64,000 nt of DNA from a virus. Taxonomy: Duplodnaviria; Heunggongvirae; Uroviricota; Caudoviricetes. Of this stretch, positions 10,196 through 56,276 are shown in pieces. The notes beneath the pieces were generated by a model. The model worked only from the letters and a program-made list of their open reading frames with translations, did not search any database and was not told where the DNA came from. The stretch spans positions 1 to 64,000 of IMG/VR virus record IMGVR_UViG_3300010163_000008; one strand, given 5' to 3'. Each line of letters opens with the position of its first letter. The first letter of the stretch is position 1. A program made the position numbers and the translations under genes.

Positions 10196-10208
10196 GGGGA
10201 GATACATA

Positions 10209-12698: not shown

Positions 12699-12818
12699 GG
12701 AGGATGTTATGTCAACAGAAGATTGGAAAGACCGTGGAGAAGAAATAATGGGTGCATTAAGACATAATGTAATGCTAACAGAAAAGAATGACAAAAAAGA
12801 AAGAAAGGAAGGTTCAGA

Positions 12819-14066: not shown

Positions 14067-14324
14067 ATGTTTGATTTACTTCTATTTCCCATGAGCTTTT
14101 GTATTGTACTTGCGTTTTATAAGTACATAGAATGGCAAACCTGTGTTCAAAGAGAAGTATTGCCTGATAAAAACTCTGATGCTAGTGCAAACATCGTAAA
14201 ACTTACTGTCACCAATAACAATTATGATTCACTAAGTGATGCGCTTGATGAACTAAATCGGGGTGAAGCTCAAATTATTTTAGGTGAACCTTTACATGTC
14301 AACATGAGAGACTATATGCAATAA
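14067..14324 (+). CDS. hypothetical protein
   Basis: ORF. Confidence 0.2.
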   Translation: MFDLLLFPMSFCIVLAFYKYIEWQTCVQREVLPDKNSDASANIVKLTVTNNNYDSLSDALDELNRGEAQIILGEPLHVNMRDYMQ

Positions 14325-18804: not shown

Positions 18805-18833
18805 AGGTATATGGAATGAATGAGAGGTGTAAG

Positions 18834-32922: not shown

Positions 32923-34395
32923 TTAAAGTTCAACCCATGCAAGATTAATAGCTGCTTTCTTATCAGTAATGGCAACGTCAGTACCATTGAAGGAGATAGT
33001 TTCAATTACGTTTGCTTGAGCGCCAGTTTCTACGCCATCAATCTTAGAGAAAGTCTCTTTAGAGATGATACCGTCATGAGTATCATCAGCAGTAGCAATA
33101 GAAAGAACGCCTGTATCGCTAACAGAAAGAGCACCTTCTACAGATTTAACAACGTTTACTTCCGCACCTTCTGCAATACCATCGAGCTTAGTTTTATCCT
33201 CGGCAGACATTGTACCAGCGGCGGTAGTGGAAGCTGCACCAATTGTGAGCTTGCCATCACCATCTACAGCAAGAGCACCGTCAACGGCTTTGATATAGTT
33301 TACTTCTGCACCAGCGGCAATACCGTCAAGTTTGGTCTTGTCAGCGGCAGACATAGCACCAGCAGTACCAGCTACAGTAGCGCCACCTTCACCAGTGGTA
33401 TCAGCAGTAGCAGTAGCTAGAGCAATCTTATTGTCAGTAACAGAAAGACCATTCTTAGCGTCTACATTAACACTGATTTCATTTGTGTCGCTAACAGTGA
33501 TAGCAGTACCAGCAGTGTAAACGTCTACAAGGTCAGTAACATTAAGGTAGATGTGGGATTCATTACCAGTACCATCTACGCTATTGATAACAAAATCAAT
33601 ATACTTCTGACCAGCAGTGAAACCAGCAGGAGTGCCGTCAGCCGCGCAAGTGTTAATGGTTGCGGACTTTACAAGATAGTCCTTCGGAATGTTGATTTTA
33701 TCGCCTACAGCAGTATCATCTTTGTAAAGCTGATATGTAGCGATAAAGCCATCTTCCGCTGTAGTTTCTTTCTTAACAGTATATTCAGCGGCAGTAGGAA
33801 TAGTAACGATTAGACCATTTTCATCTAGCTTAAGAGCATTGCCTTCTGTAGTGCTAATAGTAACACCAACAGTAGGCTCTGTAGCAGTGCCACCAACAGT
33901 AACAGACTTGTCAGCGGCAGTAACACTAGCTACCTTAGAATCAGCAAGAGCCTTTACACCGTATACAGTAGCCTTATCAGAAGTGTCAGCCTCTTCACCA
34001 AGTACCTTAGCGGCTTCGCCAGCAGCGTCAAAATCTTCTACAGCCTTAAAAGCAGCAGTACCAAGACCAGCAACAGCTACCTCTGTACCATTGACTTTGA
34101 GAGTACCATTGGTTTCACCAGTCTCAATAGTAGACTGAGCGTTAACCTGAGTCCATTTAGTTCCATCGCTGATAGCAAGGATATTAGAACCAGTTACATA
34201 ATAGAATTTATTAGCAATGGCGCTAGCAACAGCAGGAAGAGAATCTACGTGGATAACTTCTGCAATCTCGATACGGGAATCGCTATTGTCAAGGAATAGC
34301 TGTTTAGAGTCAGTTGCAAAGAGTAGCTGACCGTTGGCTACGGTTCTAGCGTTTACCTTATCAAGAGTACCACATAGAAAAGTAATGTTAGCCAT
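32923..34395 (-). CDS. tail fibre protein (N-terminus homologous to 35399 ORF)
   Basis: N-terminal LLFATDSKQLFLD ... KFYYV ... ILAI.DG.KW.Q.NAQ shared with the 1341-aa fibre; several AADKTKLDGIAxGAEVN repeats. Confidence 0.55.
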   Translation of the reverse strand: MANITFLCGTLDKVNARTVANGQLLFATDSKQLFLDNSDSRIEIAEVIHVDSLPAVASAIANKFYYVTGSNILAISDGTKWTQVNAQSTIETGETNGTLKVNGTEVAVAGLGTAAFKAVEDFDAAGEAAKVLGEEADTSDKATVYGVKALADSKVASVTAADKSVTVGGTATEPTVGVTISTTEGNALKLDENGLIVTIPTAAEYTVKKETTAEDGFIATYQLYKDDTAVGDKINIPKDYLVKSATINTCAADGTPAGFTAGQKYIDFVINSVDGTGNESHIYLNVTDLVDVYTAGTAITVSDTNEISVNVDAKNGLSVTDNKIALATATADTTGEGGATVAGTAGAMSAADKTKLDGIAAGAEVNYIKAVDGALAVDGDGKLTIGAASTTAAGTMSAEDKTKLDGIAEGAEVNVVKSVEGALSVSDTGVLSIATADDTHDGIISKETFSKIDGVETGAQANVIETISFNGTDVAITDKKAAINLAWVEL

Positions 34396-35398: not shown

Positions 35399-38300
35399 TT
35401 AACCGATTATAACAACAGTGATAGAGTTATATGCTGGTGCACTATTGAATGTAATTTGTACCTGAGTGGAGTTGAGTATTTTATAGTTGAGCCATACTCC
35501 TTCACCCAAGTTATTAAATGCACTAACCATAACATGAGGTTGATTAAGATTATGAGTAAGTGTAAAAGTTGTAGTAGAACCATTACCTATAGTTGTAGAA
35601 TACTTTTGCACTTTGCTACTAGCTAAATTATCAAGCGCTTTCTTATCAGCAGCGCTCATAGCACCAGCGGCAGATTGAGTAGCTAACGTCATTCCAAGTG
35701 AATGGTCTGCATTAACAGCAAGTCCATTGCCGGGTGTATATAAAAAGCTAAGTTCATTGTTAGTGCCTAATGATAAACACTCTTGCTTAACACTAAATGG
35801 AATGGAGGCTTGTTTATTATTAATAGGTATTGTTTTACCAGCGAATGATATATTCTCAAGTACATTAACCTGAGCACCAGCGGCTATGCCATCTAACTTT
35901 GTAGCTTGAGTAGAAGTCATGTAGCCGTTAGCGCTTGAAGTTGCCGCAGGCATACTTAGTGTATTACCACTAAATGAAAGCGGAGCACTTACTGTATAAA
36001 TTGGCTTTAAGTTGTCAATTTTAGTCTTGTCTCCGCTACTCATTGCGCCACTTTCAGTCTGAGACGCAAGAGCTAAACCTAAATGCCCAGAAGCATTCAT
36101 GCTTAAACCATTGCCGGGAACGTACTGGAATGAAATCTCATTATTATCACCTAGTGCTAAACCATTAGAATTGACACTAAGCGGTATAGTAGCTTTCTTT
36201 CCAGATATTTCAGCATTAGTATTACCCACTTGAATGCTCTCAATTATATTAACTTGTGCGCCTGCTTCAATGCCTTCAAGTTTTTTAGCATAAGCGGCTG
36301 TCATATAACCGTCTGTGCCATGTTCAGACGTGCCCTCTGACGCAGGCATAGTCAACACTTTGTTCTCTGTAAGTTTAACAGCACCAGTAGCAATGTCGGG
36401 GGCATATGCTTTATCTATATCAGTAAGAGATGCATCTTTGTCTGACAGAATTTGGAAAGGATGAGCGATAGCGTTAATATCCATCTGCCCCATAATCTTA
36501 GTCTTATCAGCACCGCTTAATGCACCATTAGTAGCTGCTTGCCCTTCTTTAGTAGGTTTAGCTAAGGATAACGCGAACTGCCCATCAGCATTATATTCAA
36601 TGCCATTACCGGGTACAAGCTTAAGCCCTATCTCGTTATTATCTCCGAGAGATAAGCCTTGATTACTAACACTAAAGGTTAAATCAATATTCTTATCTGG
36701 GTCAATAGTACCAGCTACGCCATTCAAAGAAGCGCTTTCAATAATGTTAACTTGAGAGCCATCCTCAATCTTAGCAAGTTTGTCCTTTTCGGAATATGTA
36801 ATAGCACCGTTACGATTTTTGGTTACATCAGCAACTTGCAATGCGAATTGCCCTTCTGAGTTGTACTCAATACCGTTACCGGGAACTAATTTTAGACTAA
36901 TCTCGTTATTATCACCAATTGCAAGACCCTGCTTATTAACAGTGAGAGGAATATCTACAGTCTTAGTTTCGGCGTTTAATGGAGCTTCTACACCATTAAG
37001 AGTAATATGTTCAATGTCGTTGACTTGAGAGCCATCTTCAATACCATCTAATTTAGTTTTATCAGCCATTGACATAGCGCCATTACGTGTAGTTGGAGTA
37101 ACTAGCTGTAAACCAAATTGTCCATTAGCATTATACTCAAGCCCATTGCCGGGTACTAATTTAAGACCAATTTCATTATCCTCACCAAGTGATAATCCTT
37201 GATTGTTTACACTAAATGTAAGATTTGCATTTTTATTTTCGTCAATAGTGCAAGCTACTCCATTTAATGAAGTACTTTCAATGATGTTGACTTGTGCAGT
37301 TGCTTCTATGTTATTTAATTTGTCTTTCTCGCTAAATGTAAATGCACCATTACGTTTCTTATCTACATCGGCAGTTTGTAAAGTAAACTGCCCCTGAGCA
37401 TTATATTCAATACCATTACCGGGAACTAACTTTAATCCTATTTCATTGTTATCACCAAGAGATAAGCCTTGATTATTTACGCTAAAAGTTAGATTAGCGT
37501 TTTTATTTTCATCTATAGTACAAGGAACTCCATTAAGAGAGGTGCTTTCGATGATATTAACTTGTGACCCTTCTTCAATGGTATCTAATTTAGCTTTATC
37601 ACTAAACGTCATAGCACCGTGGGTCTTTTTAGTAGCATTAACAATCTGCATACCAAATTGCCCAGAGGCGTTATATTCGATACCGTTGCCCGGTACAAGT
37701 TTAAGCCCTATCTCATTATCGTCACCTAAAGAAAGACCTCTATCATTAACACTGAATATTAAATTAACATTTTTATTTTCGTCAATGACACCTGCAACGC
37801 CATTAAGTGAAGCACCTTCAACAATATTAACTTGTGAGCCGCCTTCAATAGCATCAACTTTAGCTTTATCTTCTGCACTCATAGCACCGTTAGAAGTTGG
37901 AGTGGCTAAATCAAGAGCAATATTGCCCATATCATCAAAGTGAATACCATTTTCCTCTTTAAGAAGGATAGTAACATTGTTTTCATCAATGCTAATACCA
38001 TCACCGGGCATGGGTAATTCACAATATATATGAATTTCATTAGACGTTTGTAGATAGTTCTGTACAGTAATGTCAAGATAGGGTTTGCCTTTCTCAATTC
38101 TACCAACTCTACCATTACCAATAGCGAATACTACATTAGAAATAACGTAGTCGTCTGGTATATTAATTGGGTCGCCAAGAGCCACATTATCTTCATAAAG
38201 AACATATGTAGCTGAATAACCTAGATTAGGTAGGCGTTGTTTGAGTAAGGTGTACTCCTTATTGACTTGTGCTCCGGTTTCAATACCGTCTAGCTTTTTC

Positions 38301-39424
38301 TTATCTACAGCAAGCATAGCACCATTGGCTTCTTGCGTTACCTCGTTCATGACTAGCTTGTCATTTTTAAAATCAAAGCCGTTTCCCGGTTCTATATTAA
38401 TGCTAACGATGTTGTTGTAGTCAATATTGATGCCGTCACCAGCTTCATAAACATCTACTAAATCATTAACATTAAGATAGACGTGTGACTCATTACCATC
38501 TTCATTTGCAGAATTGATAACAAAATCAATATATTGGTCGCCTGTCTCAAATCCGGGAGGATTATTCCTCTTCTTGCAAATTTTAAGTTCAGCATACTTG
38601 ACCAGATAATCTTTTGGTATGTTAATTTGTTCACCAACAGGATTACCGTCCTTATATAGTGAATAACTTGCTACTGAATCGTCAGCGGCTTCTGTTAACT
38701 TCTGAATAGTGTACTGTCCTGTTGAAGCTATAACATCGTTAAGACTATCAGATAGTTCACTAATCTTTTGGTCAACAGTATTGTTCACATTAGTAATTTC
38801 AGTTTTGATTGTCTTATTTACTTCTGTGACTGTATTATCAATAGTAGTGTTTAATGTAGATACGCTACTATCTATTTTCGTATTTAATGTAGATACACTA
38901 TCGTCTATCTTAGTATCGAGCCTTGAAATATCTGTATCATGTTTAACGGTAATATCTTTTACAGCTTTATCTACACGGTTTCTAACACCTAGGATAGTAT
39001 GTGCGTCTACGCTATCATCTGTACTGCCAATCATTGCACCAGCCGCACCAGCAGGGTCAAATTCATCCTTAGAAGCATAAGCGGCAGTCCCTAGTCCGTT
39101 AACTGGAATATCAATACCAGATACAGATATAGTACCGGGTACACTACCAGTAGTAATCTTTTGCTGTGCATTAATCTGTACCCACTTATATCCATCGTAA
39201 ATAGCAAGGATATTATCTCCATCTACATAATAAAGTTTGTTGACAATAACACTATCTGTTGGAAGGCTATCTACAACAAGAATATCTGTAATCTGAATAC
39301 GATTGTAACCTTGGTCTACGAATAGCTGTCTTGAATCAGTTGCGTATAATATCTGTCCATCTTTTATCGCTTCTGCCGCAATCTTATATGCTGGGCCACG
39401 AGTAAATGATACATTAGTTGCCAT
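35399..39424 (-). CDS. large tail fibre/spike protein (1341 aa) with about 8 tandem repeats of about 88 aa
   Basis: N-terminus paralogous to 32923 ORF; repeats IIESxSLNGV..TIDENKN.NLTFSVNNQGLSLGDNNEIGLKLVPGNGIEYNA.GQF ... GA.T.S.KDKL..IE.GSQVN; C-terminus paralogous to 30745 ORF. Confidence 0.6.
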   Translation of the reverse strand: MATNVSFTRGPAYKIAAEAIKDGQILYATDSRQLFVDQGYNRIQITDILVVDSLPTDSVIVNKLYYVDGDNILAIYDGYKWVQINAQQKITTGSVPGTISVSGIDIPVNGLGTAAYASKDEFDPAGAAGAMIGSTDDSVDAHTILGVRNRVDKAVKDITVKHDTDISRLDTKIDDSVSTLNTKIDSSVSTLNTTIDNTVTEVNKTIKTEITNVNNTVDQKISELSDSLNDVIASTGQYTIQKLTEAADDSVASYSLYKDGNPVGEQINIPKDYLVKYAELKICKKRNNPPGFETGDQYIDFVINSANEDGNESHVYLNVNDLVDVYEAGDGINIDYNNIVSINIEPGNGFDFKNDKLVMNEVTQEANGAMLAVDKKKLDGIETGAQVNKEYTLLKQRLPNLGYSATYVLYEDNVALGDPINIPDDYVISNVVFAIGNGRVGRIEKGKPYLDITVQNYLQTSNEIHIYCELPMPGDGISIDENNVTILLKEENGIHFDDMGNIALDLATPTSNGAMSAEDKAKVDAIEGGSQVNIVEGASLNGVAGVIDENKNVNLIFSVNDRGLSLGDDNEIGLKLVPGNGIEYNASGQFGMQIVNATKKTHGAMTFSDKAKLDTIEEGSQVNIIESTSLNGVPCTIDENKNANLTFSVNNQGLSLGDNNEIGLKLVPGNGIEYNAQGQFTLQTADVDKKRNGAFTFSEKDKLNNIEATAQVNIIESTSLNGVACTIDENKNANLTFSVNNQGLSLGEDNEIGLKLVPGNGLEYNANGQFGLQLVTPTTRNGAMSMADKTKLDGIEDGSQVNDIEHITLNGVEAPLNAETKTVDIPLTVNKQGLAIGDNNEISLKLVPGNGIEYNSEGQFALQVADVTKNRNGAITYSEKDKLAKIEDGSQVNIIESASLNGVAGTIDPDKNIDLTFSVSNQGLSLGDNNEIGLKLVPGNGIEYNADGQFALSLAKPTKEGQAATNGALSGADKTKIMGQMDINAIAHPFQILSDKDASLTDIDKAYAPDIATGAVKLTENKVLTMPASEGTSEHGTDGYMTAAYAKKLEGIEAGAQVNIIESIQVGNTNAEISGKKATIPLSVNSNGLALGDNNEISFQYVPGNGLSMNASGHLGLALASQTESGAMSSGDKTKIDNLKPIYTVSAPLSFSGNTLSMPAATSSANGYMTSTQATKLDGIAAGAQVNVLENISFAGKTIPINNKQASIPFSVKQECLSLGTNNELSFLYTPGNGLAVNADHSLGMTLATQSAAGAMSAADKKALDNLASSKVQKYSTTIGNGSTTTFTLTHNLNQPHVMVSAFNNLGEGVWLNYKILNSTQVQITFNSAPAYNSITVVIIG

Positions 39425-43910: not shown

Positions 43911-43956
43911 AAAACAAACACACTCCTTTTATTCAAAAAATCATTAAAAAACACTT

Positions 43957-43985
43957 GACAAAAATTTATCATCATGTTATACTTA
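43957..43985 (+). promoter_or_regulatory. sigma-A type promoter for the recombinase gene
   Basis: ttgaca 43957-43962, 17 nt, tatact 43980-43985. Confidence 0.5.
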
Positions 43986-44019: not shown

Positions 44020-44670
44020 ATGACACAAACGGAAGTTCGTCAGAAGAAGATTTATGGTTATTGCCGTGTATCTACAAAGGAACAAAACCTCGACCGACAA
44101 CTTATCGCAATGAAAGCAGAAAACATCCCTGAAAGTAATATCTACTGCGACAAACAATCTGGTAAAGACTTTGAACGTAAGAACTTTAAAAAGTTAGTAC
44201 GAAAGTTAAAATCAGGCGACACCTTAGTAATTATGTCAATAGACCGATTAGGAAGAGACTATGATGCTATAGGACAAATGTGGCGGCATTTAGTACTTGA
44301 AAAGAATGTATGTATCAAAGTACTTGATATGCCTATACTTACTACTACAGATAATAGCCTTATTAATCGTCTGTTGTCGGATATCATTTTGCAACTGCTT
44401 GCTTATGTTGCTCAAACCGAAAGAGAGAACTTACTTAAAAGACAAGCTCAAGGCATTGAAGCTGCTCGTGCAAGAGGTGTACAATTCGGTAGACCTAAGA
44501 TTGAAGTCTGTGATGATTTTAAGCAAATCGTCATTGATTACAAAATGCGCAAATATACATTAAAAGAAGCGGTTGCGAAATCCGGTATGTCCCAAAGAAC
44601 ATTTTATAGACGTTCTAATGAACTTTGGGCTGAGATAGGTTCAGAATATGAATCGTGTGAGGGGGTTTAA
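44020..44670 (+). CDS. small serine recombinase of the resolvase/invertase (Hin/Gin/Cin/Min) family
   Basis: YGYCRVSTKEQNLDRQ catalytic-Ser motif, DTLVIMSIDRLGRD, C-terminal HTH (GMSQRTFYRR); 216 aa. Confidence 0.8.
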   Translation: MTQTEVRQKKIYGYCRVSTKEQNLDRQLIAMKAENIPESNIYCDKQSGKDFERKNFKKLVRKLKSGDTLVIMSIDRLGRDYDAIGQMWRHLVLEKNVCIKVLDMPILTTTDNSLINRLLSDIILQLLAYVAQTERENLLKRQAQGIEAARARGVQFGRPKIEVCDDFKQIVIDYKMRKYTLKEAVAKSGMSQRTFYRRSNELWAEIGSEYESCEGV

Positions 44671-44687
44671 CCCCCTCTTTTTTTATA
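44660..44687. terminator. rho-independent terminator (hairpin gagggggtttaaccccctc + T-run)
   Basis: overlaps recombinase stop codon; A/T runs on both sides, may serve the convergent lysin gene too. Confidence 0.55.
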
Positions 44688-44720
44688 TACAATAATTATT
44701 TTATAATTACCAACGTGATA

Positions 44721-45707
44721 TCAAGGATGGTTAATCATAGCTAAATTCTCTTTAGCATTATAATCTACGGTGTAACCTGCTTGAAAAAAATCACGTAGTC
44801 TTATATAATTCTCACCTTGATACATAATTGTCGTAACTGTATAATCTTTATTATCTATAGATATAATCTTGGTAGTTAAAGTAAACTCTTTATCATTGGT
44901 TGTTGAAGGTACATCTACCTTGGGCGCTACTTCCGTTGTAACTCTTTCGATATACTGTAGGCTCACCCAACCTTTACCAGTATAGCCCCAACCGTTGTCT
45001 TCCTTAGTTATATGAACCTTTTCCCCATTGTTATAAACTAAGACTATACTACCACTCACAGGATATTCACGACAATTAAGTGCGCTAGCTGTAACCTTAC
45101 CTTCGTAGTCTATTGCTTTTGTTGTAGATTGTACTACGTTTGTATCTCCTACTAAATCCCATCTTGGTCTACCATAACCCTGTATGCTCGGATAAGTAAG
45201 AGCATATGATTTATCTCTTACAGCACCACCATTAGCCACAACGCCTGCCGCACTAGAAGTGTTACCTTCTATCGTATATACTCTACCACCCTCAACCTTA
45301 ACTACAAGCCCTGTATGTGTCATATTAGACTGACTTGTACCAAAGAATATCTGGTCGCCCGGTTGTGGATTACCTGTGTAGAACCGTCCCATACTCTTAT
45401 AATATCCTGCTGAATATGTACAACCTGCACCAGCAGACTCTTTTGGTTGCCCCGTCAGCTTCATTGCTACCTCAAGACCAAAGGTCTTATAGAAACACCA
45501 GTCAACAAACACATCACACCAGGCCAGTCCTTGCTTTGCACCATTGTAAAGACTTGTTCTATCTAAATCTCTAGCATACTTAGTATAATTATTATAGCCT
45601 GCATTAGCCGTTTTATCGTCTAGTTGACTATTCGTTCTCTTTTCAAGATAACCGATTTCATTCTTAGCTGTTTGGATTAATTTTTCTATTGCTGTCATTT
45701 GTATCAC
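44721..45707 (-). CDS. endolysin: CHAP/NlpC-P60 peptidase + SH3-like + wall-binding module shared with 34438 lysin
   Basis: Cys (GLAWCDVFVDW) and His (NMTHTGLVV) CHAP residues; C-terminal KEFTLTTKIISIDNKDYTVTTIMYQGENYIRLRDF identical in pattern to the amidase lysin C-terminus. Confidence 0.7.
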   Translation of the reverse strand: MIQMTAIEKLIQTAKNEIGYLEKRTNSQLDDKTANAGYNNYTKYARDLDRTSLYNGAKQGLAWCDVFVDWCFYKTFGLEVAMKLTGQPKESAGAGCTYSAGYYKSMGRFYTGNPQPGDQIFFGTSQSNMTHTGLVVKVEGGRVYTIEGNTSSAAGVVANGGAVRDKSYALTYPSIQGYGRPRWDLVGDTNVVQSTTKAIDYEGKVTASALNCREYPVSGSIVLVYNNGEKVHITKEDNGWGYTGKGWVSLQYIERVTTEVAPKVDVPSTTNDKEFTLTTKIISIDNKDYTVTTIMYQGENYIRLRDFFQAGYTVDYNAKENLAMINHP

Positions 45708-45789
45708 TCCTTTCTTATGTAGATAATATATTTTGCCGTACTCTAATATTCAGAGTGTTGTGCAAGAGACTGTATTTTCTATTGCAACG

Positions 45790-46296
45790 CCCAAAATATT
45801 ACAATTTGGGAAGCTAATTATACATAATAATACTCTATATTTTGGTAATTCTAGTAATGTTCCAACCAAAGTATCTTCTGATACAGTACCCTCTCACACT
45901 CATTCAGCAAATAACATAACCAGTGGTGTACTTCCAATAGAAAGAGGTGGAACAGGCTATTCTTCTTTATCCTCATTGAAAAGCGCACTTGGTATTACAA
46001 ACAGTTGTACAATAGTAACAGGTAGCTTCACAACTAATTCTAGTTATTCAATGGGCACTAACATAACATTGGGATTTCAACCTAAGTTATTGATTACGAT
46101 AGCAGATAAGTACGCAGATACTGTTGATAATAGAAATATTGCATTAATTGATAATGGACAAGCCATCATAGGATTCTATTGGCTGAATAATAGTGGTAGT
46201 TTAAATTTAGCTACTACAAAACTTACTTCAACAGGAATAGGTAAATATAGTAATCTACTTCCAAGTACTACTTATTATTATGTAGCATTTAGTTAA
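45790..46296 (+). other. silent tail-fibre C-terminal cassette 1 (junction block + variable tip)
   Basis: begins cccaaaatattacaatttggg...ctatattttggtaattc (encodes LQFGKLIIHNNTLYFGNSSNVP), no start/RBS, ends ...YYYVAFS*. Confidence 0.65.
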
Positions 46297-46377
46297 GATA
46301 TTATATAATAAATTGCACTTACAATACCTCATAACTAGTTTGTCGCATTGCAATGTTTTGGCTCATAAATTGCAACG

Positions 46378-47037
46378 CCCAAAATATTACAATCAGGTAA
46401 GATAATTATATGGAATAATACCCTATACTTTGGTAATTCTAGCAATGTTCCTACTAAAGTTTCGTCTGACGCAGTACCTTCTCATACTCATTCAGCTAGC
46501 GATATAACTAGCGGAACGCTCCCTATCACTAGAGGTGGTACGGGTAATACTACTGGATTAGCCGCAAGTGCTACAAAGTTAGCAACTGCTCGAACTATAC
46601 GAGTAAACTTAGGTTCTACAAGTAGTGTTAGCTTTGATGGCACAGCGAATATTACCCCCGGTATAACTGGCACACTCTCTGCTTCATATGGGGGGACAGG
46701 TTGTACTTCTTTGTCTTCATTAAAGAGTGCGTTAGGAATTACAGATGGTTGTACAATTACTACAGGCACTTTTACTACTACTTCTGGGGGTAGTAGTGGT
46801 AAAGTAACTCTAGGTTTTCGACCTAAGCTTCTTATTGCTGTATGTAATCAAGATGGCAACAATCAAAACGGTAAGATTTTTTTATCTATTGATATTGGTA
46901 ATACTATTGTAGGTATAAGATGGGTAAACGATTATGCTGGTGCATCTTGCGGGTCATCAGTACTTACTTCTACAGGGTTTAATAGTATAAATTATTTGTG
47001 GACTAATGAAACCTATTCTTACCTTGTATTAAGTTAA
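46378..47037 (+). other. silent tail-fibre cassette 2
   Basis: same junction block (QSGKIIIWNNTLYFGNSSNVP), open frame to 47037, ends ...YLVLS*. Confidence 0.65.
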
Positions 47038-47112
47038 TAGTATCAGATTGCATTCACAACCTTACATAATTAATTTGCCGCATTGCAACGTCTTGGTCTG
47101 TAGATTGTATCG

Positions 47113-47757
47113 CCCAAAATATTACAATTCGGAAAGGTTATTGTGTGGAATAACCAACTTTATTTTGGCAATTCAAGTAACATACCCACTAAAGTATCTT
47201 CTGATACAGTGCCTGCACATTATCACTCAGCAAGTGATATAACCAGTGGTATATTATCTACTAGTCGGGGTGGGACAGGCAATGCTAATGGATTAGCTAC
47301 TAGTGCCACCAAATTGGCGACTGCTAGGAATATAAGGGTTAATTTGGATAGTACTAGCTATGGAAGCTTCGATGGGACTGCGGACGTAGCTCCCGGAATT
47401 ACTGGAACGTTATCTGCTAGTCATGGCGGTACAGGTTATACATCACTATCTTCACTTAAAAGTGCTTTAGGTATCTCAAGTAGTGGACAATGGACATATG
47501 GAACATTTACATGGTCAAAATCAACTGCCAAGACAGTCACTTTAGGCTATAGACCGGGATTAGTATTCTTAGTAATGGATAGAATATATCCTTGGGTTAT
47601 CATCTCTAATTATGGACAATGCAGTTATTTTTACACGTTATCTAGTAGCACACCAAATATAGGAGGAAGTGATATAACTAGCACAGGATTCACCTTAGAT
47701 GCCAATAGTAGTCTAATCTCAACGACATATGTAGACTATGTAGCCTTTGAAAGTTAA
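47113..47757 (+). other. silent tail-fibre cassette 3
   Basis: junction block (FGKVIVWNNQLYFGNSSNIP), ends ...YVAFES*. Confidence 0.65.
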
Positions 47758-47840
47758 TCACAATTTAAGAATATTTGCACTCATTTTATCCCGTATGATT
47801 AGTTTGTCACATTGCAATATCATAACTCACAAAAATCATA

Positions 47841-48594
47841 ACCTAAAATATTACAATTCGGTAAGTTAATTATTTACAACAACCAACTATATTTTGGCAA
47901 TAGTAGCAACCAACCAGTGACCGTCTCACCTACAAGCATATCAGCAAGCAACATTACTTCCGGTACATTTTCTACCGACAGATTGCCTACTGTCCCTATT
48001 GCAAAAGGCGGGACTGGTGCTACTGTTGCGTCTACGGCATTAAGCAATCTCGGTGGATTTTCTAGCGCCGGAGGTACTATTTCTGGTGCTGTAAATATCT
48101 CAGGCAAACTTGATGTACAAAATAATGCTATGCACATTGGGTCAGGAAGTAATGGGGCAAAGTTGAACTTTGGCGACGGTGATTATGTTTATTTATATGA
48201 AAGTACCGACGACCATCTATATATAAAAGCTGATAAAGGATTACACTTACAGTGTGGTTCAAATAGCAGTTATGATATTACTGTTCAACATGGAAGTGAC
48301 CCTGCTATATCACTACTTGGTGGTGGAGGCAGTAGTAAAATGGCTACTGGTAGTTTTTATTATAGTGGTTCAACTCAATCTGTAAATGTTGGGTTTCAAC
48401 CAGTATTAGTTATATTTACAGGCGCTGGGCAGTCTCTCTTAATAGGCATATTAAACAATGACGAAATACGAGCATGTAAAAATGGCAGTTGGCAAACCGC
48501 GTCAGTAGATACATATACAAGTAGTACTGGATTTAAAATAACATCAGGGGCTGTATCTGGCACTCAAACTATAAAGTATGCTGCTTTTGGCTAA
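47841..48594 (+). other. silent tail-fibre cassette 4
   Basis: junction block (FGKLIIYNNQLYFGNSSNQP), ends ...KYAAFG*. Confidence 0.65.
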
Positions 48595-48630
48595 TAGAAA
48601 TTGCATTCACGGTTGCCCTTCTTGCGTATA

Positions 48631-49298
48631 CCAATATCTTACAACATGGCAAAGTAATTATATGGAACAATAACCTGTATTTTGGCAACAGTAGCAATAT
48701 CCCACAATCTATTTCTGTAGATTTATCTTCTTATGCTACTACTAGCTATGTAAGTAATAATTATGCCGCTAAGTCTCATACACATTCTGATTATGCCACA
48801 AAGAACAATCCCACTTTGACAGGAACTATACACTTAAATAGCACTGATATAAGGTTAGGTGCAAATAGTAGTAGTTCAAATGTTAAAGTCAAATTCGGAG
48901 ATGGTGAATATATCTATATAAATGAAGATGTAGACGACCATCTTGTATTTTATTCTAAAAAAGGTATAGACTTTACCAGTCAAAGTAACTCTGGTACTTT
49001 TACCTTCAATGGTAATGCTATAGGCGGCGCTTCTGTACAAGTAGTAACTGGATATGGACGAGCCGCGCAGAGCGGAGGTATTAATTTAGGATTCAAACCT
49101 AAAGTAGTTGTTCTTGCAACTGCTAATAACAATGAAACAAATGTTATTGGTGGCATATTATCTCAAGGATATTCTGTGTTATTCGGAATGGATAATAGGG
49201 TTAGCCAAGGTACTAGTAATGTTAATTCTAGTGGATTTACTGTTTATGGTAGGGCTAGTGATTCAAATAGTTATTATTATTATGTAGCATTCTCATAA
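48631..49298 (+). other. silent tail-fibre cassette 5
   Basis: junction block cttacaacatggcaaagtaattatatggaacaa (LQHGKVIIWNNNLYFGNSSNIP), ends ...YYYVAFS*. Confidence 0.65.
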
Positions 49299-49351
49299 TT
49301 GAGCAATCACTTCTGACAAGTTGCAACATTGCAAGATTGTAAAGTCCTTTC

Positions 49352-50019
49352 CCATAATCTTACAACATGGCAAACTCATAATATGGAATAACACTCTATA
49401 TTTTGGCAATTCCTCTAATATCCCAACACAAGTTACACAAGATTTATCCACTTATGCTACCACTACATGGGTTAATAATAATTTTGCGGCTACAAGTCAT
49501 ACTCATTCTACATATGCGCCTAAAGATAGCCCTACACTAACAGGTAATATTCATCTAAATAGTGCATCAATACGATTAGGCGCAAATAGTTCTAATTCTT
49601 TATGTAAAATAAATATAGGAGATGGGGATTATATTCATTTTTACGAATACGAAGATGATAAATTAGAAATTAAAGGTAGCACAATTAATATGGCTACTTC
49701 TAATTTTTTAATTAATGGTACAGCTTTAGGTAGCGACAAGCAAGCAGTCAGTGGAACTATAACTAGTACAGGTTCAACCATGACAGTTAATGTAGGCTTT
49801 CAACCAACGTTGGCATTCGTTGTATGCCGTGGTGGAGCTTCGGGAAGATTGGGCTGGATAATTTATGAATCAGGTAGTACATATTGTACCTATTTAAAGA
49901 CTTCCTTGTCTCAAGGTCTTTCCAGTACGTCTGCGTCAGGTCGTCCGTCTAATGGTTTTTATATACCACAAAATTCTTTTGATGATGGTTGGCCATTGTA
50001 TTATACAGCTTTTAAATAA
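49352..50019 (+). other. silent tail-fibre cassette 6
   Basis: junction block (LQHGKLIIWNNTLYFGNSSNIP), ends ...YYTAFK*. Confidence 0.65.
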
Positions 50020-50067
50020 ACAATCTTAATTTATCAAGTTGCAATATTATAGCGTATAAAACCCATC

Positions 50068-50737
50068 TCCCAAAATATTACAACATGGCAAAATCATAAT
50101 TTGGAATAATACGCTGTACTTTGGCAATTCCAGTAATCAACCTAAAGCTATATCTGTAGATTTATCCAGCTATGCAACAACAACATGGGTAAATAATAAT
50201 TTTGCTACCACTAGTCACACTCATTCAACCTACGCGCCTATAAACAATCCTACACTAACAGGCACTATCCATCTTAATAGCGCATCTATACGATTAGGAG
50301 CTAATAGTTCTAACTCTGCTTGTAAAGTTAATATAGGCGACGGCGATTATATTCATTTATATGAGTATGAGGATGATAAGCTAGAGATTAAGGGAAGTAC
50401 TATTAATATGGCTACTTCTAATTTTTTGGTTAATGGGTCTTCATTAAGTAGCGGTGGCAAGATAGTTACTGGAACTGCTTCTGGTTCTACAATAAGAAGC
50501 CCCGGTATTAATGTAGGTTTTCAACCAACAATTGTTATTTTAATGGCTAAAACAGAAGCTACAAATAATAACACATTTTGTATGGTCTTTAATGATTACA
50601 CTGTCTTAATGTTTAGTAACTCAACCCCTGTACCTTCATTTACAAACACTGGGACAAATTTTATAACAAGCACTGGATTTAAAGTATCTAGCTGGTTACA
50701 GTCTAGCTATAATTGGAGTTATGTTGCTTTCGGTTAA
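50068..50737 (+). other. silent tail-fibre cassette 7
   Basis: junction block (LQHGKIIIWNNTLYFGNSSNQP), ends ...SYVAFG*. Confidence 0.65.
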
Positions 50738-50778
50738 TATGAGGTTGTGAACACACGATTAATCTCATCATTCATTAT

Positions 50779-51932
50779 CCAAAGTCTTACCTTTTGGCAA
50801 GTTGCTCACCTATCAGAACGCACTGTATATGGGCAACTCATCTAATCTTCCCCAAGCTGTTGGTGGAGGTGGTAAAAAGTATGCTAGTGTTGTGATAGGA
50901 ACTTCCACAGCTGGATGGAAAAAGGAAGATTGTGATTACCTTTGTGATGGAACAAACGACCAAGAAGAGTTTAATACTGCCATATCAACCTTTGATAAAA
51001 CGATTGGTGGCTCTATATTTGTACTGCCGGGGACTTATAATATAACTGCTAGGATAACTAACAGACCGGGTAATGAATGGGATAATGCACCTGTAGAAAT
51101 ATATGGGACTCCTCAGACTATATTAAAACGTTATTTTAATGACGTTAACCAGTATCAAGACAATGGACTTATAAGATTAACTACTGCTAGCATAACCTCA
51201 TATTGTAGTGTCCATGACTTATGTATAGATGGTAATAACGGCACTTACAATAGTGCCTATAATAGAGCCATAAACATATCATATAATGGGTGGGTATATA
51301 ATACTTATATATTTAATACTGCTAAGGGAATAAATGCAGGACAATATGGAGCAGTTTATGGTAATGTATTGGAAGATGTTACACAAGAAGGCATACAAGC
51401 TGGTCCATTAACCAGCGTTATAGGGAATACCTTTAATGCTAATGGCGCGAATGCATACGGTGCTGACAGTTTTGGCATTTATAGTCCAAGATTCGCAGTC
51501 GTAATAGGAAATACAATCAGTGCAGAATATAAAACAGGCATTCTTGTTGAGGATGCCGCGGTATGCATTGGTAATCATGTAGACAGGTTTGGTCAATATG
51601 GTATTAAAATTACTATTGCCAACAGTAGTCTTGTAGCAGGTAATATTGTAGATACTTGTGGCGAAACTGATAAAGAAGCTAATACATATCAGTGTTATAT
51701 AGATGGAACAAATACGACTTATAAAAACGATGGAAATCTAATTATTGGGAATGTTTTTAATCAAAGCAAAAGATATAATAGCGATACGGTTTCATATCCA
51801 AATAATGCATATTCTATTTATATAACATCTGGAGCTACTAACAATCTCATTGCGTGCAACAACATTTATGGTAAAAACTATACAAACCAGGGTGGCTCCA
51901 CTAATACCTTTTATAATAATAAATATAACTAA
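50779..51932 (+). other. silent tail-fibre cassette 8, long, beta-helix (pectate-lyase-like) depolymerase-type tip
   Basis: divergent junction (LPFGKLLTYQNALYMGNSSNLP), then repetitive G-N-x-h-x-x beta-helix-like coils (IGNTFNANGANAYGADSFGIYSPRFAVVIGNTISAEY ... IGNHVDRFGQYGIKITIANSSLVAGNIVD). Confidence 0.6.
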
Positions 51933-51944
51933 GGAGGTATAATA

Positions 51945-52316
51945 ATGCAATATCTTTTTAGAATGTATGGTAATGAAATACAGGTTATTCGATATATGAC
52001 AACCCATACAGAGATTGAATATATATATAATGAAGAAACACATATGCGTGAACCTCATGAATATGAAGCAAAATATTATTTTACCACATTAGAACAAGCT
52101 CAAAAGGACGGCGAGCCTATAAAACTCGACTATGAACCTTTTGAATGGCTCGATGGTATTTTAACAAAAGATACTGAAAATACCTATGCAGAAGCTATAA
52201 AAATTTATGAAATGGGTGAAGAAGCGTATAAAAAATCACTTTTACAAGAAAATGCTCAAACAAATGAGCAGTTGTATTCTGACGTATCTCAATGTATATT
52301 GAGTATGATTAGCTAA
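51945..52316 (+). CDS. putative tail-fibre assembly chaperone for cassette 8
   Basis: small acidic ORF immediately 3' of cassette 8 with aggagg RBS; arrangement mirrors Mu Sv-U. Confidence 0.35.
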   Translation: MQYLFRMYGNEIQVIRYMTTHTEIEYIYNEETHMREPHEYEAKYYFTTLEQAQKDGEPIKLDYEPFEWLDGILTKDTENTYAEAIKIYEMGEEAYKKSLLQENAQTNEQLYSDVSQCILSMIS

Positions 52317-52608
52317 TTTGAGATAATATGAGATTGTCTGTAACCGTTGGTTCGTAAACAAATGGTTCGGGAGGTGGAATAAGGTCAGGACGTGGAGTTA
52401 CTTTAGTGATGGTAACTCCATCTTCTGCAAATTCTACATCAAGATAAGGAGCATTATCTATAATATCACGTTCAAATTCTGGTGGTACTGGAACCCATTC
52501 TGTGGTAGTACCATCTTCTAGCGTTTCATTTTCATTCCAAACTGTTGGATATACACGATGGGATTGACTTTCAGCCCATTTATGATTCTTTTCAAAAATT
52601 GCACTCAT
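52309..52608 (-). CDS. putative tail-fibre assembly chaperone for cassette 9
   Basis: small ORF 3' of the - strand cassette, aaggaggg RBS before ATG at 52608; its stop overlaps the + strand chaperone stop in palindrome attagctaat. Confidence 0.3.
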   Translation of the reverse strand: MSAIFEKNHKWAESQSHRVYPTVWNENETLEDGTTTEWVPVPPEFERDIIDNAPYLDVEFAEDGVTITKVTPRPDLIPPPEPFVYEPTVTDNLILSQIS

Positions 52609-52669
52609 AATTATGCAAACCCTCCTTAAATTTATCATTATAATAATTATAAAAATACATGGCAAACTA

Positions 52670-53199
52670 TTAAGGTCTAAATGCTATATAATAATAAGAT
52701 TGTCCAGTTTTTACCAACTGTAACCCATTAAGATTAAATCCGCTAGAAGTAATCTTCTTAGATGAAGTCCCCACAGGGTCGCCAATTCCAACTGTTGCGC
52801 CGCGTGTAAGTATTAATGAGTTTCTACATGGCGAATCGTCCATCAAAGAAATAGCACCAATTAATACTAACACTGGTTGAAATCCTAATGATACATTAGC
52901 TTGACCACTGAATGTCCCAGTAACATATATATAATCAGATATATTACTAGAAGTTAGATATTCACTATGAGTATGATTAATAGACGCATAATTACTATGT
53001 GTATGAGAAGCAGTAGCGTATACTCCATTATGATTATGCGTAGTTAAAGCATAATTATTCAACTTAGTCGTCAAGGCAGAAGTCGTTACATAATTGCTTA
53101 AATCTACATTTGGGGCAACAGTAGTTGGTGTATTGCTGGAATTTCCGAAGTAGAGTTGATTATTGTAAATAATTAACTTGCCATACTGTAAAATATTAG
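52670..53199 (-). other. silent tail-fibre cassette 9 (- orientation)
   Basis: junction block on - strand (LQYGKLIIYNNQLYFGNSSNTP) begins directly after the stop of the expressed fibre gene; ends ...YYYIAFRP*. Confidence 0.6.
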
Positions 53200-53229
53200 T
53201 AAATGCAAGTCTGCAAGTATATTGCTTAT

Positions 53230-54129
53230 TTATTCGAATGCGGCGTACACCACAGAAATAGTTCCTCCACCTGTATAGCAACCTGATGCTAAATAGAAAC
53301 CATTGGTTCCTGTAGCAGCACTATACGAAGCAATATTACCGCCCATCATTAATGCTTCAGTACCATTTTTTGTTATGGTATTAATAGCGGCATTACCAGA
53401 TGAGTACGATTGAGCAATAACAAATGTTGGTGTGAAATCTAAACTGACCCATCTATTAGACGACAATTTGCTTAAGCTCAATGACCCTGTAGTAAAGTTT
53501 TTACTGCTACCGCCTATAGCTTTACCATTAATGGTGACATCACCGCTACTCTTTAGATTTATGCCACCAGAGGCATAGATTTCAAGATGGTCGTCAGAAC
53601 TTTCAGTAAAATGTACTCTATCACCATCACCTATCTTAATAACAGAGAAGGATGATGTAGATGTAGTACCGAGTCTAATATCAGCATTGTTTAGATGTAC
53701 TGCTCCATTGACCGTCAGAGCACCTGTAATCGTTCCTCCGCTGGTGGGTAGTGCCCCTATATTACTACAGGCACTAGACGCGCTTGTAGCCCCTGTACCG
53801 CCTCTAGCAAGGGATAATGTACCGCTGGTGATATCAGAAGCGGAATGAGTATGAGACGGAACAGTAGTAGGGGTGACAGTTGTAGGCACATTTGAAGAAT
53901 TGCCAAAATATAATTGATTGTTCCATATTATGAGTTTGCCATGTTGTAAGGTTGTTGGCAAGGCTGCTGCTGTGCAAGTTTCGGGTAGCTTGGCTTGCAA
54001 AATCGTTTGCAAATTGTTCATTTTTCCGTTGAGGTCGCTTGCAACTTGGGCGCTTGATTCGCCATTCACAATGTCTAATTTATAAGTGCCGCCACTAGTA
54101 ATATCAATGCTAGTTGTAAAAGCTGCCAT
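53230..54129 (-). CDS. expressed tail fibre gene: constant N-terminal part + currently fused variable tip
   Basis: ATG 54127-54129 with RBS; constant region then TLQHGKLIIWNNQLYFGNSSNVP junction (about 53900-53962) identical in pattern to all cassettes; ends ...VVYAAFE*. Confidence 0.7.
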   Translation of the reverse strand: MAAFTTSIDITSGGTYKLDIVNGESSAQVASDLNGKMNNLQTILQAKLPETCTAAALPTTLQHGKLIIWNNQLYFGNSSNVPTTVTPTTVPSHTHSASDITSGTLSLARGGTGATSASSACSNIGALPTSGGTITGALTVNGAVHLNNADIRLGTTSTSSFSVIKIGDGDRVHFTESSDDHLEIYASGGINLKSSGDVTINGKAIGGSSKNFTTGSLSLSKLSSNRWVSLDFTPTFVIAQSYSSGNAAINTITKNGTEALMMGGNIASYSAATGTNGFYLASGCYTGGGTISVVYAAFE

Positions 54130-55058: not shown

Positions 55059-56276
55059 TTACGTACTGCTTGTAGAACCTTCACGAAGTTCATAGTATGG
55101 TAAATCACTAACATTACTTGCCGTAATCGACATGGTACTTGAAGCGTCTAATGGTAAAGTAATAGATTGTATGATAAATCTCTCTCTCGTATAACCAAAA
55201 TATTCATCTTCAATAGTTATGATTTTATTTACATCTAAATGAGGCAGTAATGAACACTCAAACGTAATCGCAGATTGTAATATAGACTTCTGATTAAGCA
55301 AATATTCTGCATAGTCTTTAGCATTTTCTTCTGAACCTAGATTTGAAGATTCTTCATAATATGCCTTTCTTCCTATATTCTCTATTGATGTAGATGAAAT
55401 AGGATTATGATTTTCTGCTGTATAGCTATAGATATCAGTATCATTTGAATTACTGCTACTCACTGTAACACAATTAATTACTTCTGCTGGGGATAATGTA
55501 AGTACAGGATTTATATATTCAGCAGTCTTGTCTGTAAAATCCCACAATGAATCTTGTGTAGAATAAGATAAGTCTAAAGTACCATTGTCGTATCGTAAAT
55601 GACCATCAGTATCATAATAAGTGTCCGCGCCCATAATGTTTCCTACTTCTATAAAAATTTCAGAAGCATAAGTGCTAGGAGATTTATCAATCTCATATGG
55701 ACATTTCCATGAGAGTAATTCATTATCTACAATAGGTGTAGACCTATCCATTATATTAGCATTTCCCATATCAGCCCATAATGTTTGTTCAATAATCTCC
55801 ACTATAGATGTGCCTTCTGGTATGACATGGGTATAACTATATTGGTTGTACCCTGTCTCTGCACCTAAAAATCCGTATTTGTCTACACCATTAAGCGTTA
55901 CTGTCTTTTGTGTTCTATCTATACTAGGGTCAAGCATACAAAATACACCTTGTGAAAACCAATATACATCATCGGTATATATATCCTTTAACCCTACAAA
56001 TAACTTAAATCTCCTATTTATCCATATTAAACCATCTATCTTAGGAATGAATATACCATCATTATCTATAAGAGTAAAAGTACAAGTGCGTCTAACTCCT
56101 TGCTGATAGTTGATAGATATCGAACCAGCATTATCAGCAGTAATATAGTCGGTAATATCTAATATTACATTTTCATAATGGTCTAATAATTCTATACGAT
56201 ACATAGGATAAATCTCAGGTCTTGACGCAATTTCTCTATATTTAGAGTCTGCTACATTCATGTATTCAACAGCCAA
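55059..56276 (-). CDS. phage tail/baseplate structural protein
   Basis: position downstream of tape measure and large tail protein. Confidence 0.3.
   Translation of the reverse strand: MAVEYMNVADSKYREIASRPEIYPMYRIELLDHYENVILDITDYITADNAGSISINYQQGVRRTCTFTLIDNDGIFIPKIDGLIWINRRFKLFVGLKDIYTDDVYWFSQGVFCMLDPSIDRTQKTVTLNGVDKYGFLGAETGYNQYSYTHVIPEGTSIVEIIEQTLWADMGNANIMDRSTPIVDNELLSWKCPYEIDKSPSTYASEIFIEVGNIMGADTYYDTDGHLRYDNGTLDLSYSTQDSLWDFTDKTAEYINPVLTLSPAEVINCVTVSSSNSNDTDIYSYTAENHNPISSTSIENIGRKAYYEESSNLGSEENAKDYAEYLLNQKSILQSAITFECSLLPHLDVNKIITIEDEYFGYTRERFIIQSITLPLDASSTMSITASNVSDLPYYELREGSTSST

Follow-up and report, generated by a model that had tools for sequence, protein, structure and literature searches.

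The stretch of DNA analysed here (the window) comprises positions 1 to 64,000 of the IMG/VR virus record IMGVR_UViG_3300010163_000008, a virus of the class Caudoviricetes, and is 64,000 nucleotides (nt) long. Between 44 and 54 kilobases (kb) it carries a gene for a small serine recombinase, a lysin gene and an array of tail-fibre tip cassettes that closes with a fibre gene, a locus that very probably serves as a multiple-inversion (shufflon-type) switch for a distal tail fibre or receptor-binding protein. The fibre gene (53230-54129, - strand) has 299 codons and reads ...ALPTTLQHGKLIIWNNQLYFGNSSNVP. Its constant part, which we call the head (53950..54129, - strand; MAAFTTSIDITSGG...ALPTT), starts with an ATG at 54129, holds three TTGCA motifs and ends after 60 codons at a TTAC tetranucleotide. 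Here, 60 codons past the ATG, sits a junction block, and the frame runs uninterrupted from the head through the block into the tip. The sequence reads as a first-pass annotation of the window had proposed, with an expressed gene on the - strand and the block at the boundary between its constant and variable parts.

The block recurs throughout the array. A fuzzy search with a 54-nt core returned nine copies, and a degenerate 47-nt block pattern matched the window nine times at 0 mismatches, against 0.00 matches expected from 100 dinucleotide-preserving shuffles. The tenth block, at 50787, is a diverged copy that lies in frame (DNA TTACCTTTTGGCAAG..., protein LPFGKLLTYQNALYMGNSSN), and a protein-level scan of the 64 kb for the block motif found exactly these ten places and no others. 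All ten stand where the first-pass annotation had put them, as one expressed copy, eight silent frames on the opposite strand and one silent frame on the same strand. On the + strand the TTAC starts fall at 45799, 46387, 47122, 47851, 48639, 49360, 50078 and 50787, and the two - strand blocks run from 53191 to 53145 and from 53949 to 53903. The ten sites span 8.2 kb, and the spacers from the stop codon of a tip to the next block measure 37-84 nt by their coordinates, close to the 40-90 nt that had been claimed. Each site leads on its right through TTAC and the LQxGK...LYFGNSSN block into a tip, and has on its left the head or a non-coding spacer.

Site 1 and silent tip 1 occupy 45799..46296 (+ strand, TTAC at 45799-45802), and the left flank of this site, from about 45727, forms the fixed outer boundary of the array. 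Sites 2 to 4 with their silent tips follow on the + strand at 46387..47037, 47122..47757 and 47851..48594. All three tips are without an in-frame start, with a stop nine codons 5' of the GK codons in tip 2 and six codons upstream in tip 4. Sites 5 (48639..49298, + strand) and 7 (50078..50737, + strand) with their silent tips were recognized by block matches, and site 6 with silent tip 6 (49360..50019, + strand) has the block closest to the expressed copy, to which it is 82% identical over 83 nt as an inverted repeat. The diverged site 8 opens silent tip 8 (50787..51932, + strand), which has 376 amino acids (aa) and belongs to a different class. Site 9 with silent tip 9 (52670..53191, - strand) lies in the same orientation as the expressed gene, and site 10 with the expressed tip 10 (53230..53949, - strand) combines the block with shaft modules and a C-terminal beta-sandwich of ~90 aa. 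An ending common to every tip had been claimed, and this holds for most of them: the C-terminal framework ...GFxPxLV...(S/T)xGF...Y(V/A)AF is common to eight of the ten (tips 1, 3-7, 9 and 10). The ending of tip 2 (...YSYLVLS) is degenerate, and tip 8, which is unrelated to the others past the block, lacks it and terminates in ...FYNNKYN.

An ATG is present in the head gene only, with a weak AGGA 11 nt upstream. All nine silent frames have a stop codon 6-46 codons 5' of the GK codons. Five of them contain no in-frame ATG, GTG or TTG between the nearest upstream stop and the block, three offer TTG or GTG only, without a Shine-Dalgarno match, and the remaining one (48648) has a longer open stretch for which still no start is listed. 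The silent frames are therefore start-less much as had been supposed, often with a closing stop 4-12 codons upstream, and since the other tips lack a start codon, only the tip fused to the head should be translated. The head itself is rare: an exhaustive HMMER search with its 80-residue version found only 17 representative clusters at E <= 1e-10, in which it is fused to tips to give proteins of 114-506 aa.

At the other edge of the array, 1.1 kb from site 1, lies the only recombinase gene of the locus (44020..44670, + strand). It encodes a serine and not a tyrosine recombinase, a protein of 216 aa with an N-terminal catalytic domain and a C-terminal helix-turn-helix (HTH), and the motifs YGYCRVSTKEQ, DKQSGK and SIDRLGRD are present in the catalytic domain. 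Pfam PF00239 matched at 1e-27 over residues 11-154, including the RVST motif, HTH_28 matched weakly over residues 167-197, and PHROG 125, annotated as DNA invertase, matched at 2e-48. A promoter-like site precedes the gene (43955..43983, + strand; TTGACA-17-TG-TATACT, 11 of 12 consensus matches) and a strong terminator hairpin (44659-44677) marks its end. The 216-aa recombinase gene at the array edge is thus as claimed, and its putative promoter is a consensus match of a kind no more frequent in the region than chance predicts. Its assignment to the Hin/Gin family did not survive comparison. Among solved structures Sin/Bin3 (2r0q) tops the list with 98 bits (6e-27), followed by the gamma-delta/Tn3 resolvases with 78-82 bits (gamma-delta 82; 1zr2 4e-22) and Gin with only 54-55 bits (4m6f 6e-14, 3uj3 1.4e-13). 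Identity to a Gin sequence was 32%, the match to the NCBIfam model of the Mpi invertase fell far under its cutoff (43 vs 272), and the window contains no 26-base-pair (bp) site of the hix/gix type (TTnTCnAAAACC-NN-GGTTTTnGAnAA) at <=3 mismatches. We also identified no res-like pair of sites. On these sequence comparisons the protein is best described as a small serine recombinase, and the label 'Hin/Gin family' is unsupported.

Related arrays proved to be scarce. Megablast of the locus against 50,697 GenBank phages gave no match, nor did scans of IMG/VR with an exact 28-mer of the head, a neighbouring protein or the degenerate block pattern. Among 185,579 GTDB representative genomes the block pattern had one chance match, in a Bacteroidales metagenome-assembled genome with no array there, and the scan yielded neither a prophage copy nor a host. 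A metagenome scan with the head alignment returned, among the matches listed, distant human-gut relatives that were 54-61% identical, and the contig of the window was absent from them. Large protein and contig collections do hold a small clade of related loci. Three from NCBI metagenome assemblies (L001, L002 and L003) share ~85% nt identity with the window and the order DUF4376 protein, recombinase, lysin, + strand tips, small open reading frame (ORF), tip, head gene and baseplate; L002 is a complete array with nine sites, and L001 retains at least four. L005, an 8.4-kb Logan contig with seven sites, is likewise ~85% identical at the nt level. L004, from ENA, is more divergent (~70% nt identity) and has 15 sites, one at the head, seven direct and seven inverted. 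More distant are L011, on an 80-kb contig from human gut (head 55% identical), and the Logan contig L021, whose arrays are alike, with at least eight tips each, in both orientations. Recombinase orthologues stand at the array edge in L002 (91% aa identity), L001 (90%), L004 (82%) and L011 (69%). As the head occurs in only those 17 clusters and with varied tips, the architecture is a conserved trait of a rare phage clade, with the recombinase remaining linked to the array even where the site sequence has changed. Two further cassettes were noted in L002: one (~9244-9960, TTAC at ~9301, 123-aa ORF) has a block that the protein motif scans missed, and the other (11532) has a mutated site, with TATTAAGTTTTGG in place of TTAC.... 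In L011 the head gene is separated from the tip cassettes by a 376-aa ORF (12251-13381) with a reverse-transcriptase-like YMDD motif, which may belong to a group II intron, a retron or a diversity-generating element.

To define the constrained DNA we compared 46 unique sites from all loci, with positions given relative to the G of GK. The leucine codon of the site (-9 to -7) is TTA in 46 of 46, and the next base is C in 45. An equally conserved leucine nine codons past the glycine of GK is encoded by CTA (14), CTG (8), TTA (8), CTT (4), TTG (4) or CTC (3), and the glycine, lysine, asparagine and tyrosine codons of the block show free synonymous variation. With TTA invariant while the other codons vary, the blocks are more than protein-level conservation; blocks conserved as protein only had been named as one finding that would overturn the idea of a switch. 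The constrained DNA element, judged by this codon usage, is the 5' edge of the block and not the whole block. Its consensus is cCcAAaA-NN-TTAC-(A/C)A-NNN-GGnAA. Conservation extends into untranslated left flanks, at an A-rich stretch from -15 to -12 (within cCcAAaA, -18 to -12) and a TGCA from -25 to -22, and in six of the 46 sites a stop codon stands two positions 5' of the TTA codon.

The only invariant dinucleotides of the site are TT, TA and AC. Aligning the blocks, the route that had been suggested for locating a 2-bp crossover core, narrowed it to TTAC and left all three dinucleotides as candidates. Crossover centres at -8.5, -7.5, -11 and -2.5 were each only partly symmetric. Positions -11/-10 were rejected as the core as they vary among sites. 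The dyad TTAC(A/C)-N4-GGnAA is a perfect palindrome in L004 and L011, and its centre at -3/-2 was rejected as the crossover of the window clade because the dinucleotide there differs between sites that have exchanged partners; a TG-type tip of L002 is found both behind the head and behind a silent flank. In L011 the junction, LP(N/D)GK, lies on the 14-bp palindrome TTGCCTAAYGGCAA, which suggests a much shorter site for a recombinase of 69% identity, possibly with another crossover position. Sites of this kind fall at 10173-10197, 14086-14111, 14660-14685, 17022-17046, 18225-18238 and 18868-18881 of L011, where the near-palindrome TTGCCTAAYGGCAA encodes LPNGK and little is conserved outside it.

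The 80 nt to the left of the sites are 8.5-fold enriched for TTGCA/TGCAA (1.85 vs 0.22 per 80 nt), and we speculate, by analogy with res sites, that these motifs may be accessory or half-site elements. Examples lie at 46324-46386 and 53950-54040 of the window and also in L001, L002 and L005. The three copies in the head are part of its coding sequence, in which window and L002 agree at every position over 44 nt (100% identity), compared with 85-89% in the background. In the window clade and in L004 a TTGC stands 17 nt 5' of TTAC, in L004 within the Y-V/I-A codons of the preceding tip.

The tips occupy different places in different phages. In L002 the head is fused to a tip that resembles window tips 5 and 6, and the homologue of the tip expressed in the window (84% nt identity) is a silent cassette in direct orientation (14813-15487). 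The two stretches of homology involved overlap only in 53890-53959, the junction block. A homologue of silent tip 2 of the window lies at 8572-8926 of L002 (83% nt identity). P0004/L005 has a homologue of silent tip 3 of the window joined to its head, the next tips (like 4, 6, 5 and 10) are in the orientation of the head, and the homologue of the expressed window tip is again silent (from 7738); tips 3-6 of the window are inverted relative to its head. Derivation of L005 from the window by a single inversion was considered and rejected, as neither its tip order (3, 4, 6, x, 5, 10) nor the way tip 10 points agrees with it.

Closer relatives allowed the exchange point to be mapped. L001 and L002 are 97% identical, and the sister phages overall are 95-100% identical to each other. 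At site 4 of L001 the left flank, as far as ...ATCATTCAAAA, is that of L002 site 10799 apart from a single private change (G at -11), and the sequence from TTTACAATCCGG on agrees exactly with the right flank at L002 site 12350, so that the switch point falls inside CAAAA-N-TTTACAA. In L018 a spacer-type left flank is joined to the head-fused tip of L002, with 100% identity over 97 nt from TTTAC. The codon before GK, for H, F, W, Y or S, stays tied to the tip in every case, which puts the exchange 5' of that codon. Taken together, the two junctions and the tip-linked codon place the exchange between -10 and -4, inside TTTACAA. The 60-75-bp block that had been described is real as a repeat, and exchange is confined to ~7 nt at its 5' edge, around TTAC.

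Assembly breakpoints gave a second line of evidence. In NCBI assemblies of the L002-type phage from six samples, ten of ten contig ends within the array fall at 0 or exactly 97 nt from TTTAC; these are the 3' ends of L001 and L003 and both ends of L014, L016, L017 and L018. L014 (3175 nt) starts with TTTACAATGG at the head site and ends with ...GGTAA at the inverted site 13049, and so spans exactly one invertible segment; it comes from the same sample as L018. L017 starts at the TTTAC of site 10049, and L003, L016 and L017 all end with ...CCAAAACTTTAC at site 12350. For L016 the start precedes the C of the TTAC of site 10049 by exactly 97 nt, the ends of L001 and L018 lie exactly 97 nt after the T that precedes TTAC, and L018 starts 97 nt before position -3 of its first site. 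Exact repeats between sites do not exceed ~13 nt, and with an assembly k of ~97 a collapse of repeats cannot explain these ends. They are what would be expected of a de Bruijn graph with k ~97 that branches at the sites, with several left flanks per right flank and vice versa. The contig breaks occur only at TTTAC-type sites and not, in L002, at the two ATTAC-type sites (8598 and 15514), the cassette with the undetected block or the cassette with the mutated site, which hints at compatibility classes among the sites.

We propose the following mechanism. The adjacent serine recombinase would pair two oppositely oriented sites and exchange strands at a core of 2 bp, within the invariant TTAC or beside it, by conservative site-specific recombination. 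Right flanks would be swapped and the intervening DNA flipped, giving the head another tip and leaving its former one behind a spacer. Such inversions would also flip internal sites, and a series of them could place each of the ten tips at the head, the direct-orientation tip 9 among them; the change of tip would then direct the virion to a different cell-surface receptor. The core of what the first-pass annotation had read from the locus, one head and nine silent tips re-paired through inversion by the adjacent serine recombinase, is upheld by the anatomy of the array, the re-paired flanks of sister phages and the site-locked contig ends, alongside the constraint on TTAC, the different tips found at the head in relatives and the linkage of recombinase and array. 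From these observations we infer this recombinase as the catalyst, inversion over deletion, the position of the cleavage dinucleotide, an effect on host range and switching in the window phage.

Several observations weigh against this interpretation. The recombinase is nearer to resolvases (Sin, gamma-delta) than to known invertases, a 26-30-bp dyad crossover site could not be clearly defined, and the conserved site of L011, TTGCC-N4-GGCAA, has its centre off the interval mapped in the window clade. One inversion cannot turn the arrangement of the window into that of L002 or L005, and cassette content differs too. A deletion between direct sites would explain the L001 junction just as well, and the tip of L018 differs from any L002 tip. 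The same assembly graph would arise from a mixture of strains, each fixed in its own arrangement, L015 and L019 (sixth sample) do not follow the contig-end pattern, and the contigs with site-locked ends belong to sister phages that share ~85% identity with the window. The exact head protein of the window is on a single contig, we only infer inversion in the window phage, and a search with the L002 head protein returned no isoforms sharing that head. Receptor binding by the tips, and a change of host range through them, are put forward from position and by analogy.

Some of these points would also suit an array of fixed paralogous tip remnants, reshuffled over evolutionary time by homologous recombination in the 60-70-nt blocks, beside a recombinase that serves multimer resolution or integration. 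Such a locus would account for the resemblance of the recombinase to resolvases, for the differences in cassette content as well as orientation among the window, L002 and L005, and for the lack of window-phage isoforms in the searches made. We consider it improbable, as homologous recombination would not be expected to gather its exchange points within <=13 nt where the block begins at its 5' side, next to a DNA-constrained element, or to lock ten in-array contig ends to TTTAC though exact repeats are ~13 nt; the linkage of recombinase and array is moreover kept down to 69% identity and across different site sequences.

Non-reciprocal gene conversion of the pilin or VlsE kind, in which the cassettes act as donors and the array stays fixed while the expressed copy changes, has in its favour the many silent, start-less cassettes beside one expression site, and the L001 junction taken alone could be a product of conversion or deletion. 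Conversion would leave the order of donors intact, and we regard it as very improbable given the multi-tip stretches of L005 that are reversed relative to the head and the discrete segment between two inverted sites in L014. The head-fused tip of L002 is also found behind a silent flank, pointing to reciprocal exchange, and the array keeps a dedicated serine recombinase; serine recombinases carry out reciprocal, conservative exchange. Least probable of all, in our judgement, is that the tips are expressed independently and simultaneously from internal promoters and non-canonical starts, with the block as a protein motif only. Mechanical ORF calling does give TTG or GTG starts for some cassettes, and public gene callers annotated several as genes. 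Yet a start before the block is missing from most silent frames and a Shine-Dalgarno match from all of them, promoter-like matches in the region are at background (50 found vs 48.9 expected), headless tips would miss a 60-residue N-terminal segment conserved in 17 representative clusters, and conservation of TTAC and of the untranslated left flanks is seen in the DNA itself.

The tip proteins have the features of phage fibres. The expressed tip contains the shaft modules HTHSASDITSG...RGGTG and GDGD..DDHLEI (GDGDY..DDHLEI), and homologues of the HxHSASDITSG..RGGTG shaft carry PF12789, PF07484, PF13884 and PF11962. An AlphaFold model of the expressed fibre, built on an alignment of 20 tips, had a mean predicted local distance difference test (pLDDT) score of 70, and its last ~90 residues (~210-299) formed a compact beta-sandwich with pLDDT 77-92. 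Nine of the tips are taken to have this small C-terminal sandwich in common, with loops that vary, and one tip to be a larger, different domain. Foldseek found no PDB structure matching the fibre model at E <= 0.001 (the best was SPbeta YomS at E = 0.04, followed by jelly-roll capsid proteins), and BFVD gave weak matches only, to uncharacterized virion or fibre proteins. From its location among baseplate and tail genes, its fibre-type repeats and the modelled distal beta-sandwich, the gene is predicted to encode a phage tail fibre or receptor-binding protein. Tip 8 has no match in Pfam, NCBIfam or PHROG, and relaxing Pfam to E <= 5 yielded nothing useful for it or for the small ORFs; its single-sequence AlphaFold model reached a pLDDT of 31. 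At the position of tip 8, L002 has a tip of 440 aa with a Peptidase_G2 domain, and by sequence these two represent a different, larger class of tip.

Two small ORFs lie between tips 8 and 9 in convergent orientation. The one downstream of tip 8 (51945..52316, + strand) encodes 123 aa ending in ...ILSMIS, and the one downstream of tip 9 (52309..52665, - strand; likely ATG at 52608, giving 99 aa) ends in ...LILSQIS. They overlap by 8 nt in the perfect palindrome ATTAGCTAAT. Their shared ending, ...ILS(M/Q)IS, is a likeness at the protein level, as the serine and leucine codons differ. Orthologues of the ORF at 52309..52665 are found in L002 (14477-14776), L004 (12129-12446) and L021 (11965-12246); the tail-to-tail pair is kept in L004 (12129-12446 and 12439-12681), with one copy in L002 and L021. 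This layout resembles the Sv-U / U'-S'v arrangement of the Mu G segment, which makes the small ORFs candidate tip-specific assembly factors like Mu U/U'; each would be co-transcribed when its own tip sits at the head.

Tail-fibre variation by inversion is well known. In Mu (Gin, G segment) and P1 (Cin, C segment), as proposed here, inversion swaps the C-terminal part of a tail fibre; those switches differ in having two states, two sites, Hin/Gin-family enzymes and a Fis-dependent enhancer, and reside in temperate enterobacterial phages. Min has six crossover sites in ~3.5 kb. The Min system of p15B shares with our locus a constant 5' fibre segment, start-less 3' segments that point either way, a small serine recombinase encoded alongside and permutation of tips (PMC6109161). 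Our locus differs from Min in its ten sites in 8.2 kb (15 in L004), a recombinase nearer to Sin and the resolvases, the lack of a 26-bp site of the hix/gix/mix type, and a large phage carrier with its own replication genes and probably a Gram-positive anaerobic host, for which the enteric Fis mechanism is not expected. The likeness to Gin, Cin and Min drawn by the first-pass annotation, on a larger scale, therefore holds, with ten sites against six in Min and two states in Gin and Cin. Rin of Bifidobacterium prophages is, like the present locus, a phage-borne, multi-cassette shufflon of receptor-binding proteins from Gram-positive gut bacteria, with the constant N-terminal gene and the recombinase at opposite ends and short asymmetric sites before the variable genes; it uses a tyrosine recombinase, 11-bp rix sites and five variable genes, in small temperate siphophages (PMC6109161). 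The R64/IncI shufflon (Rci, sfx, PilV) also chooses the C-terminal segment of an adhesin tip by multiple inversions, although with a tyrosine recombinase, a conjugative pilus and seven sites. Sin/Bin3 and the gamma-delta/Tn3 resolvases have the same build of catalytic domain plus HTH and are the closest solved relatives; unlike the inversion proposed here among many sites in coding DNA, resolvases of the Sin and Tn3 type resolve direct repeats with the help of accessory sites.

By analogy of function we place the locus with the Min and Rin type of phage shufflon, as an extension of the two-state Gin and Cin switches. What is new against these systems is the scale, the recombinase lineage, the TTAC site, the large-phage carrier and the mixed classes of tips. 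Programmed inversions in prophage tail fibres are a recognized class (PMC9881135), a 2026 paper presents its putative inversions in gut viral genomes assembled from metagenomes as a first report (PMC13501310), and our full-text literature searches found no description of such a system. Inversions in metagenome-assembled viral genomes thus appear to be little explored (PMC13501310, PMC9881135). A bolder reading, which we consider less likely than not, is that a Sin/resolvase-like recombinase was recruited here as a multiplex invertase that would need no Fis enhancer and would recognize short TTAC sites (a 14-bp palindrome in a sister clade), in what would be the largest phage shufflon, with 10-15 tips of mixed classes in large, possibly lytic phages of anaerobic hosts of Gram-positive type.

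If the switch is active, one genome holds ten receptor-binding tips (15 in a relative) that are sampled by DNA flipping, a built-in host-range library with tip numbers well above those of Mu (two states), Rin (five variable genes) and Min (six sites). Its modular, head-compatible tips could then be used to engineer host range against uncultured anaerobes, and it would provide a new pair of recombinase and site for multiplex inversion tools, with short, coding-compatible sites and an unlikely dependence on Fis. It also poses the mechanistic question of how a resolvase-like serine recombinase favours inversion over deletion among many sites, eight of them direct. Should the phage be lytic, switching would take place during lytic replication and not in lysogeny. 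Breakpoints in public metagenome assemblies can, in addition, expose active shufflons at base-pair resolution.

The surroundings of the array point to a large phage. The only record of the exact fibre protein is a JGI contig of 116,952 bp. Window and array alike have a GC content of 36%. A CHAP and SH3 endolysin gene (44721..45707, - strand; PF05257 at 9e-10, PF08239) separates the recombinase from the array; it is not part of the invertible region and has the same position in L001-L003. The endolysin of L001 (7234-9219) has 661 aa with Hint/intein domains, against 325-328 aa in the orthologues (L002 7509-8486, window 44721-45707), and by this comparison carries an inserted intein. The fibre gene is the last of a - strand baseplate and tail module; its neighbour encodes a tail protein with DUF5048 (55059-56276; phrog_1887 at 1e-35), and ORFs of 878 and 1674 aa lie upstream. 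Beyond the recombinase come small membrane proteins and a DUF4376 protein. Elsewhere in the window are genes for a family-A-like DNA polymerase that is split, for a primase-helicase and an anaerobic ribonucleotide reductase, and for additional fibre-like proteins. The CHAP/SH3 lysin indicates a Gram-positive-type host, and the gene content as a whole marks a large phage from an anaerobic habitat, whose host is probably not enterobacterial.

The two parts of the DNA polymerase (25489-26937 and 27226-29367) match the N-terminal and C-terminal halves of phrog_405 and are separated by a gap of 290 nt, for which an intron, the remnant of an intein or a genuine split could account. In L002, an IS605-family OrfB/TnpB (Cas12f-like) gene (18399-19529) lies inside the region of the DUF5048 baseplate gene; the insertion leaves an ORF of 310 aa, compared with 405 aa for the window orthologue, and is found in neither the window nor L005. 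At least three more fibre-like proteins are encoded on the - strand of the window, downstream of the lysis genes, at 30745-32241 (498 aa), 32923-34395 (490 aa) and 35399-39424 (1341 aa). They match tail-fibre and collar PHROGs, and the virion probably carries other, non-switchable fibres too.

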